A stretch of DNA of 10,854 nt from a virus (taxonomy: Duplodnaviria > Heunggongvirae > Uroviricota > Caudoviricetes). Of the stretch, positions 2,719 to 10,440 are shown piece by piece. Each line of letters starts with the position of its first letter. Within the stretch, counting starts at the first letter, position 1. The DNA lies in IMG/VR virus record IMGVR_UViG_2740892230_000028, one strand, 5' to 3'. The notes under the pieces were generated by a model. It had not been told where the DNA came from, ran no database searches, and saw only the letters and a list, made by a program, of their open reading frames with translations. The translations under genes and the position numbers were made by a program.

Positions 2719-3432
2719 TCAATAATCAAGCCCTTGCCTGGATACATATCTGTCTGGCGGGAAGCCATAATAGCGGTGAAATACAGAAATAAAGTAGGAC
2801 CAGCTTGAATAACCGCATTTTTCTGCTACAGCCTGTCCATATCCATGCCGGGAACATAACATATTCACAGCAACACGCATCCGCTCTTCCAGCAACAAGC
2901 GACTGAACATGTGCCCTTCATTTTTCAGTTTTATCTTTAACAAACTCTCACTCATATGCAGGCGTAACGCAATCGCACCAAGCGTCCAGCTTGCTGATAT
3001 ATCTGTCTGAATTATCGCCCTGACTTTGGCACTTATACTGGATAAACATCCACTTAAAAATAATAATATCCGTTCATCTGATTCAAACAGCGACAGGCAT
3101 GCCATCATAAGAAACATATCCGTGGTATCTCCGGAAAATCTCTGGCTGGTAATTAAAGCCTCAGCCAACGCAGGGTTGTTGGGTTCCAGTGACAGATAAA
3201 GCGGAACGTCAGTCAGATGAGTTCTTGTCAGCTTATGCTGAATTTCCAGATATTGACTTACTATGGAATGGTTTATATCGAAAATTTTAACTTTGCCATA
3301 ATGCATAAGGAAAAGCGCCCTGATGCATTTGGTGGCCAGAACGACTGAGCCGGGCTTAAGTGACAACGTATCCTTTTCAAGAAAAATATTAATTGGGGAG
3401 CAAACCATGATAACTGAACAGACAACAACCAT
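2719..3432 (-). CDS. AraC/XylS-family transcriptional regulator (prophage moron)
   Basis: C-terminal double HTH signature ...SWTLGAIALRLHMSESLLKIKLKNEGHMFSRLLLEERMRVAVNMLCSRHGYGQAVAEKCGYSSWSYFISVFHRYYGFPP...; AT-rich gene. Start is ambiguous (ATG at 3432 or 3408) and neither has a clear SD; a TATAAT-like hexamer abuts the first ATG. Confidence 0.8.
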   Translation of the reverse strand: MVVVCSVIMVCSPINIFLEKDTLSLKPGSVVLATKCIRALFLMHYGKVKIFDINHSIVSQYLEIQHKLTRTHLTDVPLYLSLEPNNPALAEALITSQRFSGDTTDMFLMMACLSLFESDERILLFLSGCLSSISAKVRAIIQTDISASWTLGAIALRLHMSESLLKIKLKNEGHMFSRLLLEERMRVAVNMLCSRHGYGQAVAEKCGYSSWSYFISVFHRYYGFPPDRYVSRQGLDY

Positions 3433-3570
3433 TATAATTTTACTTTCATTAGCAATTGGTTAGTTCAATTATAGCCCCAAAAGGTAAATTATCATCAACA
3501 CATAAGCAAAGGACTGACAGGTGCCGCTAACACCCACCAGCCGCCCATTTACCACAAATANNNNNNNNNN

Positions 3571-3781
3571 GCACCCGCCAGAACTGCGCCAGACACTGGT
3601 CCAGCCACTTCAGGTAATCATCGTCGCCCTTCCACTGGTTATCCCAGCCCTCAGGCTTCACTTTAAAGTACGGCGGGTCCGTGACTATCAGGTCAACAGA
3701 ATTTTCGGGTAACGACCGGATAAATTCCAGGCAGTCGGCGTTGATTAACTCACAACTGGATATTTTTACAGTATTAAGCAT
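3571..3781 (-). CDS. DNA N6-adenine/N4-cytosine methyltransferase, N-terminal fragment (interrupted by N-run)
   Basis: MLNTVKISSCELINADCLEFIRSLPENSVDLIVTDPPYFKVKPEGWDNQWKGDDDYLKWLDQCLAQFWRV contains the DPPY catalytic motif of amino-methyltransferases. Only about 70 codons lie before the N-run. Confidence 0.7.
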
Positions 3782-3920
3782 GGATCATTAAGCCTGTCTC
3801 TGATAGGCTCATTCTGCTTTTGCGCAAAGCAGTGGGCCTGAGGTTTGCTTGTGAACCCAACGCATGAGCAGATGGCTGGTGGGTGCCCCTAACACCCACC
3901 AGCCGCCCATTTACCACAAA

Positions 3921-3945
3921 TAAAAAAGCCTTCACTGCGGAAGGC
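3921..3945 (-). terminator. Intrinsic terminator after the small ORF, minus strand
   Basis: GCCTTC-ACTGCG-GAAGGC perfect 6-bp stem (3928-3945) with a six-U run on the minus strand (plus-strand A-run 3922-3927); the ORF stop lies within the hairpin. Confidence 0.6.
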
Positions 3946-4129
3946 GTCTGTAACAACCGAACTGATAGTCTGCCAGACCCGCCATAACCAGCTGGGTCAG
4001 TATTAACTGGCAGCGTTCGCGTGAAAGGTAAGTATTCTGCGCTATCTCCCCGACTGTCGCCGGTTCGGTAACGCTTAATTCATTAAACACCACTCTGGCG
4101 GTTTCTGTCATATCCTGCTGTTTTAGCAT
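3932..4129 (-). CDS. Small hypothetical protein (65 aa), possible winged-helix / HTH-like
   Basis: ATG at 4129-4127; MLKQQDMTETARVVFNELSVTEPATVGEIAQNTYLSRERCQLILTQLVMAGLADYQFGCYRRLPQ; terminator upstream (4252-4273) and downstream (3921-3945). The alternative start at 4111 would give 59 aa. Confidence 0.45.
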   Translation of the reverse strand: MLKQQDMTETARVVFNELSVTEPATVGEIAQNTYLSRERCQLILTQLVMAGLADYQFGCYRRLPQ

Positions 4130-4251
4130 GTCTTTTTCCCTTTTCCGGTTAACGTGACACACCAATAACTCTTGTCGAAAAAGCCAGCAAGCTGAAAGAC
4201 AGGTATTCACCGCCACCAGCACGTTTACTGTACTGACGCGATTTCAGTCAT

Positions 4252-4273
4252 AAAAAACCCGCCAGGCGGCGGG
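4252..4273 (-). terminator. Intrinsic terminator, minus strand
   Basis: CCCGCC-AGGC-GGCGGG stem (4258-4273) with a six-U run on the minus strand. Confidence 0.55.
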
Positions 4274-4373
4274 GTGTAAAAAATCTTCTAACGTCAGGCA
4301 TAAAACGCCCANNNNNNNNNNCTGTATTAATAACTACCAGCACATTTAACGCACTGCGCTACTTTGCGGGCAC

Positions 4374-4396
4374 AAAAAACCCGCTCAGAGGCGGGG
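4374..4396 (-). terminator. Intrinsic terminator downstream of the CPBP gene, minus strand
   Basis: CCCGC-TCAGAG-GCGGG stem with a six-U run on the minus strand; homologous to the 4252-4273 terminator. Confidence 0.5.
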
Positions 4397-4536
4397 TCAA
4401 GCTATGCGGCGAAATAACCACTCTTAACAGCATACCTGATTTTTTACGTACGTAAATGCTTTGCCGTGCATATTTTTCATGCAAATGTCACGTCCTGCTA
4501 TTTTTCAGTCTTATAAATTTAAAACCATAGAAAAAA

Positions 4537-5355
4537 TCAATTATGTTTTAAAAATGGATAGGTAAAGAATAACAAGTGACACAGATTCAAACCAAAATGG
4601 AAAAGGGTGGCAACCCACAAACGCCCACTCCACATCCATGACAATCCATACACAACACCAGATAACGTGGCAAATAATACAAGTAAAGCACCACCTGAAT
4701 AGTGATAAAAACCAAACAACAAAGCCGCCACAATTAATGCAACCAATGGAGACGTTACTTCTGATAGCCGTGATTGAATATACCCTCTAAATAATGATTC
4801 CTCTGCCAGAGACACAAAAAACAAATTAGCCAATATAAACTCTGGCAACCACTCAGGAAAATGAATCTCTGGCTTTAATCCACCAAAAAAAACAGCCAAA
4901 AACAGGATAAGAGGAACAGAGAGCGACAGAGCCCCCCACTTCCACAAAGACACTTCTGATTTTACTTCTTTTTTAAACAAAGAAGATGTACACAGGACTA
5001 ACAAAAATGGCACCAGCGCTTTATCAAAATTAAAATACATTGTATAGGGAGTACTTTGAGGGCCAACAGTAACAGAATTTAGCACTACAGGATTGTGAAA
5101 CCCTGGCCATAGATGGAAAGATAATGCTATGGCTGATAAAACTATGCCAACTTCATATATAGATTTAGCCCAGGCGTTATATTTCCAGTTGAACTTCAAA
5201 ATAATAAAAAAAACGATTGTAGCAACAAAAAATAACACCGACCAATCAATAATATCATTAAGCACAGCCAGGACAACAGACACCGTCAACAATGAAAAAG
5301 CCACTACCTTATGCCAACTGAGAGTTGACAGTGACAGTACTAACACAATCCACAT
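4537..5355 (-). CDS. CPBP-family (CAAX protease / Abi-domain) intramembrane metalloprotease-like protein, moron directly downstream of Q
   Basis: ATG at 5355 with AAGGAG 5 nt upstream; multi-TM hydrophobic protein carrying the three CPBP motifs in order: EESLFR (EExxxR), FGFYH (FxxxH), HFGLN (HxxxN). Gene and flanks are visibly AT-rich. Confidence 0.8.
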   Translation of the reverse strand: MWIVLVLSLSTLSWHKVVAFSLLTVSVVLAVLNDIIDWSVLFFVATIVFFIILKFNWKYNAWAKSIYEVGIVLSAIALSFHLWPGFHNPVVLNSVTVGPQSTPYTMYFNFDKALVPFLLVLCTSSLFKKEVKSEVSLWKWGALSLSVPLILFLAVFFGGLKPEIHFPEWLPEFILANLFFVSLAEESLFRGYIQSRLSEVTSPLVALIVAALLFGFYHYSGGALLVLFATLSGVVYGLSWMWSGRLWVATLFHFGLNLCHLLFFTYPFLKHN

Positions 5356-5507
5356 AAGCACTCCTTTTATTTAATGATGAAGATTGATTATCAATATTTT
5401 CAATTCACCAGGCAACATTTTATCTACCTTCCACAATACATGACCATCAAAAAAATAAACATGTTAATTATAAACACAGAAAACATAACCCTCATCACTA
5501 TATATCC
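5356..5507 (-). promoter_or_regulatory. AT-rich Q-to-moron intergenic region, the expected location of the late promoter and Q-utilisation site
   Basis: Positional inference from lambdoid gene order; a TATAAT hexamer lies on the minus strand at 5467-5472 with no convincing -35, and no GC hairpin terminator is present. Confidence 0.3.
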
Positions 5508-5879
5508 CTACCGCATATCCATATCTAACCGGACATTCAGAGCCATAAGCATTCCTTCAATAATACCTTCCGCTTTATAAAGCCTTTTACCAATAAGCCC
5601 ATCAGAACATCTATGCTTACGTGCAAGAGCCATAAATGTCATTCCACCTACGTAATAATCCACCAACAAATCGTGCAAATACTGATTATTCTTGTTTAAT
5701 CGTGCCATACAACCACAAATTATCATGGCGTCATCATCAGAACACTGAGGACGTGATTTCACTTTAGTCGGGATTAATCCTTTAAAACCAGCAGCTATCG
5801 AGGGCCATGTTACATCTTCATGATTATTTGCTGCCCATGCCCCCCATCGCTCAAGAACCATCTGGATATCACGCGCCAT
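5508..5879 (-). CDS. Short Q-family antitermination protein (quuD-like, ~124 aa)
   Basis: [61 protein letters not shown]...; ATG at 5879 with GAGGTGG 5 nt upstream; overlaps the rusA 3' end by 11 nt. Resembles the short antiterminator that follows rusA in E. coli DLP12, from memory. Confidence 0.7.
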
Positions 5880-6240
5880 CGTTACCACCTCTGATTTCGT
5901 AAATCTTCACGCCCAGCCGTCCACCTGGCACAGGCTGACCGCGCACAATATTGATTTCATCAAACTGCTCGTCATCAATGAGCACTTCCGCATGCGTCAG
6001 CGCATCCAGCGGTGCTTTCAGAATGTTGTCCAGGTCACGGCGGCGCTTATCCGGTGGTTCTGCAATAATTTTTATTGCCAGCCGTCCGGACAGGCTTAAT
6101 TTCAGCCGCTGCTGGCGAACAATAAGCGCCACAGCCCGGCGATAACGCTCACCGGCTTTTGATACAAAATATGTGCTGCCACGACGTCGCCAGTAGGTGT
6201 TCACCGTCGGCGGGTAAGGCAAAACAAACTCTATACGCAT
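5869..6240 (-). CDS. rusA: Crossover junction endodeoxyribonuclease RusA (Holliday junction resolvase)
   Basis: [41 protein letters not shown]...[31 protein letters not shown]... matches the conserved RusA core (DKRRRDLDN); AAGAGGT SD upstream of the ATG at 6240. Confidence 0.9.
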
Positions 6241-6252
6241 CAGTAACCTCTT

Positions 6253-6827
6253 TTACCCGAGCACGCCGGTTGCAAAAGCGTGATCAAGAAAACGAAAAAT
6301 TAAATCAACCTGGGAACCATGCTTTTCTTCGAACGCCAGCGGATCCGCATGAAGCTCGTTGTGATGCTCCCGACACAGCGGTAGCGTGAAAATATCGTGG
6401 GATTTTGTTCCCATTCCACCCTGACCATGACCAATCAGATGATGAGGATCGTCCGCTGGCTTACCACAACACGCACACGGCTGTGTCTTTACCCAGCGTG
6501 TGTATTTCTCATTTACCCAGCGGCGACGTTTAGGTCGTTTCATGAAGGATTCCGGAGACTCCGGATCAACGGCAATGCTGACCACCGTCTTTTCCTGTGG
6601 TGGGTTCTGTTGCTGGTGGGTGTGAGGCGGTAGCGCAATATTTTTTGTGCGCTGCTTCAGTATGCTGGTGGCGGTCTGTTCTCCCGGTATGATGTCGCTT
6701 TCACGGTATACGGAGCGGATTTTTTCCGCCGGTAATCCCAGAGAACGACGCGATACTGCCTCAGGTAATGCGTCCACCACCTGATTGCAGACTGCCCACC
6801 AGGATAATTCAGCCAGCGATAATTCCC
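6253..6827 (-). CDS. DUF968 (YdfU-like) prophage protein, C-terminal ~190 codons (5' end lost in N-run)
   Basis: ...ELSLAELSWWAV...TVVSIAVDPESP...WVKTQPCACCGKPADDPHHLIGHGQGGMGTKSHDIFTLPLCREHHNELHADPLAFEEKHGSQ...; stop TAA at 6253-6255 is 12 nt before the rusA start. Confidence 0.75.
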
Positions 6828-6837
6828 NNNNNNNNNN

Positions 6838-7148
6838 CCCACCACAACGCTGGCAGTTTCTGAAAACCGGCACACCCTGTTTTTCCGACTCTTCACGATG
6901 AATGGCAACACCGCGCCCACGACAATCTGTACAGGCGGTGGAAACCTCCCCCTTTCCGCCACACTCCGGACAGGCAACTTTTANNNNNNNNNNACCACCA
7001 CAACGCTGGCAGTCTCTGATAACAGGCATACCACGTTTTACCGACTCTTCACGATGAATGGCAACACCGCGCCCACGACAATCTTTACAGGCGGTGGAAA
7101 CCTCCCCCTTCCCTCCACACTCCGGACAGGCAACTTTTACCACCTCCC
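6838..7148 (-). repeat. Two near-identical ~150-bp coding units, each encoding a paired CxxCxGxG zinc-ribbon module, separated and flanked by N-runs
   Basis: 6838-6983 and 6994-7148 differ by several substitutions; each encodes ...KVACPECGGKGEVSTAC(K/T)DCRGRGVAIHREES.K.G.PV.R.CQRCGG. The same module begins at the end of the Q-like N-terminal piece (7159-7245). Confidence 0.6.
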
Positions 7149-7158
7149 NNNNNNNNNN

Positions 7159-7734
7159 GACACCACGCCCACGGCAATCCTTACAGGCGGTGGAAACCTC
7201 ACCCTTTCCGCCACACTCCGGACAGGCAACTTTTACCACCTCCCTGACTTTTTTCCATTCCTCCCAGTAAGACGGATACACGCCTTTTGTGCACTTTGCC
7301 CACACTGGCGGCTTACCATCCGGATACTGGATCTTGTTTGTAAAAACCTCGCTTTCAATAAATTTTTTTCCGTGACAGCAGGGGCACTGTTTTTTGCTCG
7401 CCGCGCTACGGGCATAATCTTCAAACGCATACGAAGCCATAATGCGCATCACTACCGGTTTTATTTCTGCCGGGAGTTTTCTCAACGCCGCCACACGATC
7501 GCACCGACTGAGTGCATAATCTGCCAGTAATTCTGTTGCCCGCGCCCTGTCATTCATACTGATGCCCATTTTCCCCAGGAACGCAGAAAACCCCATCTCA
7601 GCCCGATTCTGTGTCATGCCCTGCGCGGCCATCACATCAGTGATACTCAGCGCATCTTTTGACGTTGAGGCCGATGCATCAGTCAGGCCGGGGGATTTTG
7701 GGGAGTAGTATTTCGGTAAATCTTCCAGTTTCAT
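7159..7734 (-). CDS. Lambda-Q-family antitermination protein, N-terminal part (3' end lost in N-run)
   Basis: MKLEDLPKYYSPKSPGLTDASASTSKDALSITDVMAAQGMTQNRAEMGFSAFLGKMGISMND...MASYAFEDYARSAASKKQCPCCHGKK... aligns motif for motif with my recollection of the lambda Q N-terminus (SPKSP, TDVMAA.GM.Q, GF..AF.GK, S.ND, FAY.DY.RSAA, C..CHG). The ATG at 7734 overlaps the upstream rusA stop (ATGA). Confidence 0.65.
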
Positions 7735-7968
7735 TTTTTGACCTGCCCTTCAAGCATTATGGGGTAAATCTTCACCCCCATACGTCCACCAGATACTGGC
7801 TGACCACGAACGATATTGATTTCATCAAACTGCTCATCGTCCATTAACACTCCCGCATGCGTCAGCGCATCCAGCGGTGCTTTCAGGATATTGTCCAGGT
7901 CGCGACGACGCTTATCCGGTGGCTCTGCAATCACCTTTATCGCCAGCCTTCCGGACAGGCTTAATTTC
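7731..7968 (-). CDS. rusA: RusA, C-terminal half (5' end lost in N-run); runs directly into the Q-like gene
   Basis: ...[78 protein letters not shown]. Confidence 0.75.
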
Positions 7969-7978
7969 NNNNNNNNNN

Positions 7979-8243
7979 GCAACCCCGCATGCGTCAGCGC
8001 ATCCAGCGGCGCTTTCAGAATATTGTCCAGGTCACGGCGGCGCTTATCCGGTGGCTCGGCAATAATCTTTATCGCCAGCCTTCCGGACAGGCTTAATTTC
8101 AGCCGCTGCTGGCGAACAATAAGCGCCACAGCCCGGCGATAACGCTTTCCCTCCTCCGAGATAAAATATGTGCTGCCACGGCGTCGCCAGTAAGTGTTCA
8201 CCGTCGGCGGGTAAGGTAAAACAAATTCTATGCGCTCGGTCAT
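7979..8243 (-). CDS. rusA: RusA, N-terminal part (3' end lost in N-run); a different copy from 7731-7968
   Basis: [88 protein letters not shown]; the segment before the N-run overlaps in homology with the segment after it, so the two pieces are not contiguous. Confidence 0.75.
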
Positions 8244-8590
8244 TTATGCTTTCCACTTCAGAACACCCGAATTTCTCGCGTGCATTAAAAAACGAATCAG
8301 CAACAACAGCTGGCTGCCGTGTTTTTCTTCAAAATCTTTTACCCCGGCGTGTAGTTCGCTATGGCATTTACGGCACAGCGGAATAACAAACAAATCATCA
8401 GCCTTTGTTCCCATCCCTCCCAGTCCATGACCAATGATGTGATGCGGATCATCTGCCTGATTGCCACACGTCATGCATTTCTGCGTTTTTACCCAGCGCG
8501 TGTATACAGGCATCTCTTCCCGTTGTGATTTCTGGCGCTGGAGATACTGAGCCGGTGACTCCGGATCAACGGCAATGCTGACCACCGTCT
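8244..8590 (-). CDS. Divergent DUF968-type C-terminal Cys/His domain protein (5' end lost in N-run), immediately followed by rusA
   Basis: TVVSIAVDPESPAQYLQRQKSQREEMPVYTRWVKTQKCMTCGNQADDPHHIIGHGLGGMGTKADDLFVIPLCRKCHSELHAGVKDFEEKHGSQLLLLIRFLMHARNSGVLKWKA*; roughly half the residues match the other DUF968 C-termini. Confidence 0.6.
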
Positions 8591-8600
8591 NNNNNNNNNN

Positions 8601-8633
8601 TGGCGGGTAAGGTAAAACCAAATCTATGGGCAT
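8601..8633 (-). CDS. rusA: rusA 5' fragment (first 11 codons, then N-run)
   Basis: ATG at 8633 with AGAGGTGA SD; MPIDLVLPYPP matches the RusA N-terminus (cf. [11 protein letters not shown] at 6240). Confidence 0.6.
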
Positions 8634-8645
8634 CAGTCACCTCTT

Positions 8646-9088
8646 TTACCCAAGCACGCCTGTTGCGAAGGCGTGATCAAGAAAATGAAAAATTAACTCA
8701 ACCTGGGAGCCGTACTTTTTCTCAAACTCCAGCGGGTCAGCATGAAGTTCGTTGTGGTGCTCCCGGCACAACGGTAGTGTGAAAATATCGTGGGCCTTTG
8801 TTCCCATTCCGCCCTGCCCATGGCCAATCAGGTGATGCGGATCATCAGCTGGCTTTCCACAACATGCGCACGGCTGCGTCTTAACCCAGCGTGTGTACTT
8901 TTCATTAACCCAGCGACGACGTTTAGGCCGTTTCATGAAAGATTCCGGAGACTCCGGATCAACGGCGATGCTTACTACCGTCTTTTCCTGTGGCGTGGTT
9001 TGTGGCTGGTGGGCGTGAAGCGGTAGCGCTATGTTTTTTGTGCGCTGCTTCAGGATGCTGGTGGCGGTCTGTTCTCCCGGTATGATGT
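8646..9088 (-). CDS. DUF968 (YdfU-like) protein, C-terminal part (second copy; 5' end lost in N-run)
   Basis: ...IIPGEQTATSILKQRTKNIALPLHAHQPQTTPQEKTVVSIAVDPESPESFMKRPKRRRWVNEKYTRWVKTQPCACCGKPADDPHHLIGHGQGGMGTKAHDIFTLPLCREHHNELHADPLEFEKKYGSQVELIFHFLDHAFATGVLG*. Fragment 9099-9247 is a further paralogous linker piece. Confidence 0.75.
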
Positions 9089-9257
9089 NNNNNNNNNNCG
9101 GGTTTTGCTGGTGGGCGTGAGGCAGCGGCGCAAGATTTTTTGTGCGCTGCTTCAGTATGCTGGTGGCGGTCTGCTCTCCCGGTACGATGTCGCTTTCACG
9201 GTACATTGAGCGGATTTTTTCCGCACGCAACCCCAGCGAACGACGTANNNNNNNNNN

Positions 9258-9635
9258 TGATGTCGCTTTCACTGTACACAGAGCGAATTTTTTCCGCACG
9301 CAACCCCAGCGAACGACGTAATACCGCTTCCGGTAGCGCGTCCGCCACCTGATTGCGGACCGCCCACCAGGATAATTCAGCCAGAGATAATTCACGCTCC
9401 TGCGTACCGCTTATTGCGTGACGGATGATGTCAATCATCCAGGCGGCCAGATTCTGTTGAGCAAGTTGATCCAGTGAATCAGATGTCTGCTCCCGCAGCT
9501 GGTTGTCGCAGTGCCAGCACAACACCATTGCGCCGGTACCATAACGGTGAATGACGGTTTCGCTGTGATGATAATCACCGTGTAGCCACTGGCAGGATTT
9601 CACGTGACGTAATAACCAGTCAGACAGTGCACCAG
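9258..9635 (-). CDS. DUF968 protein, middle section (bounded by N-runs)
   Basis: GALSDWLLRHVKSCQWLHGDYHHSETVIHRYGTGAMVLCWHCDNQLREQTSDSLDQLAQQNLAAWMIDIIRHAISGTQERELSLAELSWWAVRNQVADALPEAVLRRSLGLRAEKIRSVYSESDI; about 90% identical to the overlapping part of 9646-10041. Confidence 0.7.
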
Positions 9636-9645
9636 NNNNNNNNNN

Positions 9646-10041
9646 TATGCCATTCATTGCGTGGCGGATGACGTCAATCATCCATGCTGACAGGTTTTGT
9701 TGAGCAAGTTGCTCAAGTGATTCGGATGTCTGGTCGCGCAGCTGGTTGTCGCAGTGCCAGCACAACACCATTGCGCCGGTACCATAACGATGTATGACAG
9801 TTTCGCTGTGATGATAATCACCATGAGGCCACTGGCAGGATTTAACGTGACGTAATAACCAGTCAGACAGTGCACCAGCGCCACCAGCAGCACGAATCAC
9901 ACGCTCATTGCTGAAAAATGGCAGTAATGATTTATCTTCCGCCAGCGGCTGGCGAACGGCAGGAACGACCCCGGACGGCAGATTACGCATGCTTTTCGGT
10001 TCCGGCTCCACCAGTACCCGGGTATTGTGGAATACCGGCAT
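9646..10041 (-). CDS. DUF968 protein, N-terminal section (3' end lost in N-run); start uncertain
   Basis: MPVFHNTRVLVEPEPKSMRNLPSGVVPAVRQPLAEDKSLLPFFSNERVIRAAGGAGALSDWLLRHVKSCQWPHGDYHHSETVIHRYGTGAMVLCWHCDNQLRDQTSESLEQLAQQNLSAWMIDVIRHAMNGI. ATG at 10041; an in-frame GTG at 10113 with GGAGGT 3 nt upstream is an alternative start. Confidence 0.6.
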
Positions 10042-10064
10042 GGATTCACGGCCCGGCTTAACGA

Positions 10065-10209
10065 TCACCAGCCCGAGTTCCGGTACCAGAACAGGTCGAA
10101 GTAATACCCGCACATTACCTCCAGATCCGTTGCTGGAATGTGCGGGACGGACGCGGTGGCCGTTCGGAGTAAGGGAGCCTGACGGAGATTATCCAGTGAC
10201 GGTAGTCGA
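10065..10209 (-). CDS. C-terminal fragment of an unidentified upstream nin-region gene
   Basis: Open frame ...RLPSLDNLRQAPLLRTATASVPHIPATDLEVMCGYYFDLFWYRNSGW* ending at TGA 10065-10067, 24 nt upstream of the DUF968 ATG; no family recognised. Confidence 0.3.
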
Positions 10210-10243
10210 NNNNNNNNNNGCGAATTGTAAACCAGAATGCCAG

Positions 10244-10271
10244 GAAAAAACAAAACCCGCCGAAGCGGGTT
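10244..10271 (-). terminator. Intrinsic terminator, minus strand
   Basis: AACCCGC-CGAA-GCGGGTT perfect 7-bp stem with a U-run on the minus strand; duplicate of 10811-10840. Confidence 0.55.
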
Positions 10272-10440
10272 AAGTGCNNNNNNNNNNTGACTTAAATGCG
10301 TGAGAATACCGCTCGTGCGTGTGGGCAAGAACGGTCGAATTATCATGTTTGTAATATTTTGCGTTGCGTGCCATCGGTTTTCTCCGGTGGCACGGTGTTA
10401 CTCAGCGGGAGTTCAGCCCCGCGCAAGATTGTAGATGAGT

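Follow-up and report, generated by a model that had tools for sequence, protein, structure and literature searches.

An intact CPBP-family intramembrane protease gene as prophage cargo between the antiterminator gene Q and a probable late promoter module in Escherichia coli

The CPBP gene and its distribution

The window, by which the whole 10,854-nt stretch of DNA analysed here is meant, carries on its minus strand (4537–5355) a gene for a 272-aa CPBP (Rce1-like) intramembrane glutamic endopeptidase, an assignment based on Pfam and on identity to a RefSeq protein. The product is identical to WP_000265267.1 of strain 2013C-3264, and its counterpart in the Sakai prophage Sp4 is ECs_1085. A preliminary description of this DNA had recognised the three CPBP motifs EExxxR, FxxxH and HxxxN in the predicted protein, and both the profile search and the structure prediction bore this out. 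In fact, PF02517 was matched with 70.6 bits against a curated cut-off of 22.4 (E=1.4e-19, profile positions 3–92 of 93) and PHROG 13291 was matched across the full length of the protein, and the NCBIfam CPBP/Mrt models gave domain-only matches, all under their equivalog cut-offs. Each motif occurs a single time in the protein, as EESLFR at 185, FGFYH at 214 and HFGLN at 253, and the full catalytic set is present (Glu185-Glu186-Arg190, His218 and His253-Asn257), its residues being invariant or nearly so in a 45-sequence alignment of the subfamily. The AlphaFold model derived from this alignment was confident (pLDDT 95.2, pTM 0.92) and depicts the product as a stand-alone inner-membrane protein of about 9–10 helices with the CPBP/Rce1 fold, a multi-helix membrane architecture that resembles the solved members of the family. 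When PDB sequences were searched with the family-alignment profile, chance hits only were returned, so that fold comparison is needed to recognise such a resemblance.

The strong Shine-Dalgarno sequence that had been attributed to the gene can be read directly as AAGGAG at 5361–5366 (minus strand), 5 nt before the ATG. Its characterisation as an AT-rich moron right after Q also proved accurate, since the gene has a GC content of 37.9%, against 53.5% for the nearby RusA gene and 28% for the gap that separates it from Q, and it fills a slot whose content varies among prophages. With a dN/dS of 0.13–0.24 between its alleles, the gene is kept under purifying selection. The window carries, in short, a real and intact CPBP membrane-protease gene as cargo of a lambda-like prophage of EHEC-type E. 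coli.

The 1571-bp locus was found in 613 of 5426 complete E. coli genomes (~11%), with at least 99% identity in 548 of them, and its carriers include strains of O157:H7, O26:H11, O111 and O145. The gene belongs to a known family and has been annotated before, the RefSeq product name of WP_000265267.1 being 'CPBP family intramembrane glutamic endopeptidase' and the annotation of ECs_1085 in O157:H7 Sakai being 'phage CAAX amino terminal protease family protein', and a literature search found no paper on this particular gene. Among 50,697 deposited phage genomes, no match to the locus was obtained by megablast, and tblastn of the protein against deposited phages retrieved two weak Listeria matches only. 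The gene, seen in prophages and lacking a match in deposited phages, is therefore known from prophages only.

The cargo slot and the conserved module

Upstream of the CPBP gene, and on the same strand, lies the gene for a 123-aa antiterminator Q of the Q21/Q933W family (5508–5879; PF06530, E=4.9e-52), whose product is related to the solved Q21 protein (structure 6p18, E=6.9e-8). The start of Q is overlapped by the end of the gene for the RusA Holliday-junction resolvase (5869–6240, minus strand), which provides the upstream context. Between Q and the CPBP gene extends an AT-rich gap of 152 nt (5356–5507), which is a candidate promoter site of the latter. This gap contains sigma-70-like hexamers such as TTGCCT-17-GATAAT at 5415–5387 (minus strand), a pair that recurs as TTGTCA-17-GATAAT in an 83%-identical allele from E. 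albertii, and promoter-like hexamers in the region number 9 versus 5.1±2.5 in shuffled sequences, which is not clearly above chance. No terminator was found in the gap between Q and the CPBP gene, and its sequence is unconserved both in the alleles of 59–62% identity and among prophages whose Q proteins are 81–94% identical. The gap also holds a 23-codon hydrophobic ORF (MRVMFSVFIINMFIFLMVMYCGR) at 5424–5495 (minus strand), whose first half is partly retained in the E. albertii allele and which is missing from the 59–62% alleles; it probably arose by chance from the AT-rich composition.

On the downstream side, the neighbourhood is cut by an N-run, as had been pointed out from the start, and complete EHEC genomes fill it in. 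The order found there is RusA, Q, CPBP, a hairpin terminator, a 65–79-aa protein (PHROG 331), an AraC-family regulator (ECs_1087), the tRNAs ileZ, argN and argO, a 616-aa SASA-family carbohydrate esterase and then the lysis genes. The window itself contains, on the minus strand, a Psr-family AraC-like regulator homologous to ECs_1087 (2719–3432) and the tRNA trio ileZ-argN-argO (2441–2690), in which ARAGORN names ileZ tRNA-Met (CAT). The gene psrA is ecs1087 of Sp4 in one study (PMC13502914), in disagreement with a review that gives it as z1789 of OI-50 (PMC10877973).

CPBP alleles of 83%, 62% and 58–59% protein identity reside in prophages that differ in their replication and lysis modules, and in each case the CPBP gene starts ~120–145 nt past a PF06530 Q gene. 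Across the four diverged prophage types, its only constant neighbours are Q and a conserved late-leader module. The 65-aa phrog_331 protein and the Psr-family AraC regulator were considered as partners of CPBP and rejected because the gene after CPBP in the E. albertii prophages is the holin; both lie beyond the module, are absent from those prophages and also follow the ORF6N alternative described below. The complete EHEC genomes and the three other prophage types revealed no bacteriocin, toxin, export or small-peptide partner, and the earlier remark that no partner gene is visible still stands once the N-run has been bridged.

The conserved module occupies 4374–4456 on the minus strand, downstream of the CPBP gene. 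It opens with an invariant 14-bp palindrome, TTTACGTACGTAAA, of the form TTTACG(TA/AT)CGTAAA (4443–4456), the first hexamer of which, TTTACG, is –35-like. The alignment then shows a –10-like TATGCT at 4429–4434, kept as TATnnT about 8 nt past the palindrome and separated from TTTACG by 16 nt; next comes the conserved start-of-transcript block GTTAAGAGTGGTTA, and the two together span 4414–4434. The intrinsic-terminator hairpin CCCGCCTCTGAGCGGG, with a run of six T (4374–4395), closes the module and is probably the tR' of the late leader. This order of palindrome, TATnnT, leader block and hairpin with T-run is kept even where coding sequences are saturated with changes. The CPBP gene had been credited with a terminator of its own; however, the hairpin belongs to the shared module, which was found in 3610 of the 5426 E. 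coli genomes, six times as many as carry CPBP, and in 82 phage records, free phages included. It is also present at comparison loci (L018, 4527–4600; L101, 2501–2578; L100, 1501–1582) and occurs once per locus with this Q type, in the same orientation and always between Q and the lysis or late genes.

What stands between Q and the module varies. Where an ORF6N-domain gene replaces CPBP after Q, the same module comes next. In the free phage ev207, an antisense porin gene comes after Q and the module lies beyond it, ~200 nt before the holin, and in PA-2 an antisense porin gene likewise precedes the module, which lies just ahead of the lysis genes. In the Stx2a phage WGPS2, the slot is filled by two antisense genes, after which come the module, a small protein, a methylase, tRNAs and stx2A. 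It was largely shown, then, that CPBP sits in a cargo slot of variable content, bounded by a Q21-family Q gene and by the conserved module. The other cargo, namely the lc/nmpC porin (PA-2, DLP12, ev207), the ORF6N gene and the two antisense genes of WGPS2, shares the position of CPBP but consists of unrelated proteins, several of them encoded on the opposite strand.

The Q protein of the Stx2a phage is ~45% identical to that of the window, and in its module the palindrome half differs, while the leader and the terminator are the same. The upstream half therefore co-varies with Q, which is the behaviour expected of a Q-binding element. Judging from the sequence, the 14-bp palindrome is a candidate for such an element, and the module as a whole is probably the Q-responsive late promoter, Q-loading site and terminator (pR'/qut/tR'). 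As a caution, the binding element published for Q21 consists of two 8-bp subsites in direct repeat (bioRxiv 10.1101/651190) and is not obviously palindromic. The predicted leader fold was no better than that of shuffled sequence (z=–1.0), the best Rfam scores in a scan of 3800–5600 had E values of 0.027 and 0.39, both under the gathering score, and no paper carrying the module sequence was found in the literature. The possibility that the module, or a second terminator at 4258–4273, corresponds to the sRNA HnrS was dropped; HnrS is a 66-nt prophage sRNA placed in Sp9, Sp10 and Sp12 (PMC13502914). One of the CRP sites in the 1986 record of PA-2 overlaps the module; it is an early prediction made for the divergent lc gene, and it was not counted as evidence.

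Relatives, expression and possible function

Full-length relatives of the CPBP protein, with 45–55% identity, are found across Enterobacterales. A profile search of 1.84 billion representatives gave 580 clusters at E<=1e-30, and among the clusters listed the proteins have ~270–300 aa or are shorter fragments, with no fusions. The 45-sequence alignment revealed an N-terminal loop conserved in the subfamily, HLxPGFHN ... GPxSxPFxMYYNFDKALVPF. On the chromosomes of Providencia, Hafnia, Photorhabdus, Xenorhabdus, Serratia and Yersinia, the gene order is modA, modB, modE, modF, CPBP and then gpmA or the gal genes, and in other genera the chromosomal CPBP has different housekeeping neighbours; the modF–galE junction of K-12 is empty and lacks CPBP. 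In many Morganellaceae and Yersiniaceae (e.g. L005–L009 and L027), CPBP lies directly downstream of modF, which encodes an ABC-type ATPase, and in the same orientation. The modF-linked chromosomal CPBP is of the same subfamily as the prophage protein, with the same length, N-terminal loop and catalytic residues, but it is a single-copy gene in core synteny, whereas the prophage gene sits in a cargo slot. No recurrent toxin, bacteriocin, export or peptide gene was found beside CPBP at 80 chromosomal loci, and the survey of genomic context for a conserved partner, which had been suggested at the outset, came out negative in prophages and chromosomes alike. The preliminary description had also held that a consistent location of the homologues in housekeeping contexts would speak against a defence role; this objection applies in part, the ~50%-identical relatives being stand-alone genes in the conserved modE–modF–CPBP–gpmA/gal order.

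Three characterised members of the family offer points of comparison. Rce1, a type II CAAX prenyl endopeptidase (Methanococcus maripaludis, 4CAD), shares 17% identity with the CPBP protein; the prophage subfamily differs from it in having an extra N-terminal half with a conserved loop of its own, and bacteria are not known to have prenylated CAAX substrates (PMC3578759). SpdC/LyrA of Staphylococcus aureus (6U0O), solved in complex with the SagB enzyme, is 14% identical, and in contrast to SpdC the prophage CPBP retains every catalytic residue. McsI is, like the prophage protein, a CAAX/CPBP-family protein of E. coli, and its single gene suffices for protection (PMC3316575). However, McsI, which is compared here by description, has 216 aa and is encoded on plasmid pSYM1 next to the microcin gene mcsS and the export genes mcsA and mcsB, whereas the prophage CPBP has 272 aa, is prophage-borne and stands without a partner. 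The sole E. coli match obtained by tblastn against 72,556 plasmids at E<=1e-3 was an O157:H7 EDL933 record with the same gene (99.6% identity), and because no further E. coli plasmid homologue was found at this threshold, any relation to McsI would be at the level of the domain family only.

With regard to expression, the gene had been described as sitting where late transcription starts; the module lies beyond CPBP, and the gene is instead probably located upstream of the late promoter. Since the module is the probable late promoter region, CPBP would belong to the slot and not to the Q-dependent late transcript. In the lysogen, transcription would begin in the AT-rich region upstream of the gene itself, where the TTGCCT-17-GATAAT pair, with its TTGTCA-17-GATAAT equivalent in E. 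albertii, is the best candidate promoter. During induction, early-operon transcription running on through Q would reach the gene as well, because the gap contains no terminator, and both transcripts would end at the shared tR' hairpin. Q and its target site presumably must be co-inherited, with any genes lodged between them travelling along, which may explain why the linkage of Q and CPBP persists across alleles of 58–62% identity.

We propose that the prophage CPBP descends from the single-copy, partner-less core-synteny family (modF–CPBP–gpmA/gal) of Morganellaceae and Yersiniaceae, and that it works as an active intramembrane protease whose substrate, a membrane or envelope protein or peptide, is shared by Enterobacterales. 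In that case it would serve lysogenic conversion by altering the envelope physiology of the host, and would not be one half of a toxin/immunity pair or part of a multi-gene defence system. To this explanation taken as a whole, which comprises a Sp4-type cargo gene, a slot before the late module, expression of its own or by read-through, and an envelope-protease conversion function, about an even chance may be given. Its functional part, an active stand-alone protease with a membrane or envelope substrate serving as conversion cargo, is put well under even odds. Intact motifs do not prove catalysis, because some CPBP proteins, such as Abx1, work without protease activity (PMC3578759).

The main rival, though a rather unlikely one, is that the protein is an orphan immunity or superinfection-exclusion factor, the protease cleaving or sequestering a class II microcin, a bacteriocin or a phage entry component. 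Standing alone does not keep a gene from being an orphan immunity gene, and this reading stays alive because McsI, the CAAX-family protein of E. coli G3/10, alone protects EPEC from microcin S (PMC3316575). It also gains from the envelope-altering genes, such as the lc/nmpC porin, that occupy the same slot elsewhere, from the purifying selection on CPBP across several prophage types and from its frequency in O157, O26, O111 and O145 strains. On the other hand, it is weakened because none of the PADLOC-DB defence-system models matched the protein at E<=0.01 and because 'Abi' came to be associated with abortive infection through a historical mis-annotation, less than 1% of Abi-domain proteins being found in bacteriocin loci (PMC3578759). 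Of the initial suggestion that CPBP/Abi proteins act as immunity or abortive-infection factors, the immunity precedent of McsI stands and the 'Abi' connection does not. Nothing relevant was found in the literature on CPBP or PF02517 together with phage defence. The lack of a bacteriocin, toxin, export or small-peptide partner in the prophages and at the 80 chromosomal loci, the lack of an E. coli plasmid homologue other than the EDL933 record and the core-synteny position of the orthologues argue against this alternative as well.

The protein could also act independently of proteolysis, binding a host membrane enzyme or a sensor kinase and thereby retuning envelope or virulence signalling in the lysogen, as in the SpdC–SagB and Abx1–CovS pairs, but this is decidedly unlikely, the near-invariance of the catalytic residues in the subfamily alignment favouring retained catalysis; nor did a candidate partner come to light. 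A different objection concerns the architecture itself: the late promoter might lie in the 152-nt gap, in which case CPBP would be part of a constitutive pR'-to-tR' leader ending at the 4374–4395 hairpin. The canonical cassette has pR' right after Q (bioRxiv 10.1101/651190), the gap does contain promoter-like hexamers and the first terminator past CPBP is indeed the shared hairpin. However, the gap is unconserved among prophages with closely similar Q proteins (81–94% identical), and in ev207, PA-2 and the Stx2a phage opposite-strand genes follow Q, with the module beyond them and before the late genes, which makes this arrangement very unlikely. Least of all is a lytic-cycle function to be expected, in which delayed-early read-through from Q would supply a protease that processes a phage or host membrane protein, e.g. 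a lysis or entry component. The co-orientation of CPBP with Q, the terminator-free gap between them and the closeness of CPBP to the lysis cassette in E. albertii prophages are compatible with it, but CPBP is dispensable, unrelated genes filling the slot in functional phages, its orthologues are chromosomal and lie outside prophages, and the deposited phage genomes yielded no DNA match and, at the protein level, the two weak Listeria matches. We consider such a function extremely unlikely.

For now, the gene counts as an unexceptional, previously annotated representative of a large protease family most of which is uncharacterised. It is found in the main EHEC serogroups O157:H7, O26, O111 and O145, beside virulence regulators of the Psr and Pch families, and if it were protective against microcins or phages, it would bear on the competition of EHEC with commensal and probiotic E. 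coli. In its most far-reaching form, this idea would have an orphan immunity or exclusion protease protect EHEC-type lysogens from a class II microcin (e.g. microcin S of commensal or probiotic E. coli) or from the entry of competing phages, and would make the slot between Q and its site a general hiding place for protective genes, locked by the co-inheritance of Q and site; this is unlikely. The more useful by-product of the analysis is that, for this type of Q within the Q21 family, the probable late promoter module comes after a variable slot and not directly after Q, and the position of the module beyond the slot affects predictions of when the cargo genes of the slot are expressed.

Assembly of the window and neighbouring contigs

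The window is a draft scaffold interrupted by 19 runs of ten N, and near-duplicate fragments of lambdoid prophage genes are abundant in it. The contig that holds the CPBP gene (4322–6827) matches E. coli 2013C-3264 with 100% identity. Directly below the N-run, the stretch 3571–4311 has only 90.7% similarity to the same genome; it comes from a paralogous prophage and was put here by the scaffolder. The region 6828–10287 is made up of short contigs between N-runs in which the same DUF968/HNH and RusA genes recur as alternative alleles; it represents collapsed repeats of several prophages, and for this reason the long X-containing ORFs in it are assembly artefacts. Towards the other end of the window, the segment 750–1500 is very AT-rich (31–35% GC) and contains an ORF of 111 aa on the plus strand (1140–1475), for which neither a Pfam match nor an equivalent in the reference prophage L001 was found and which may be a further cargo gene or non-coding sequence. 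The paralogous contig 3571–4311 includes the second copy of the terminator (4258–4273) and a PHROG 331 small protein at 3932–4222 with a weak winged-helix signal. It also carries the start of a DNA methyltransferase gene (3527–3781), and the same layout occurs ahead of stx2 in phage Stx2a_WGPS2.
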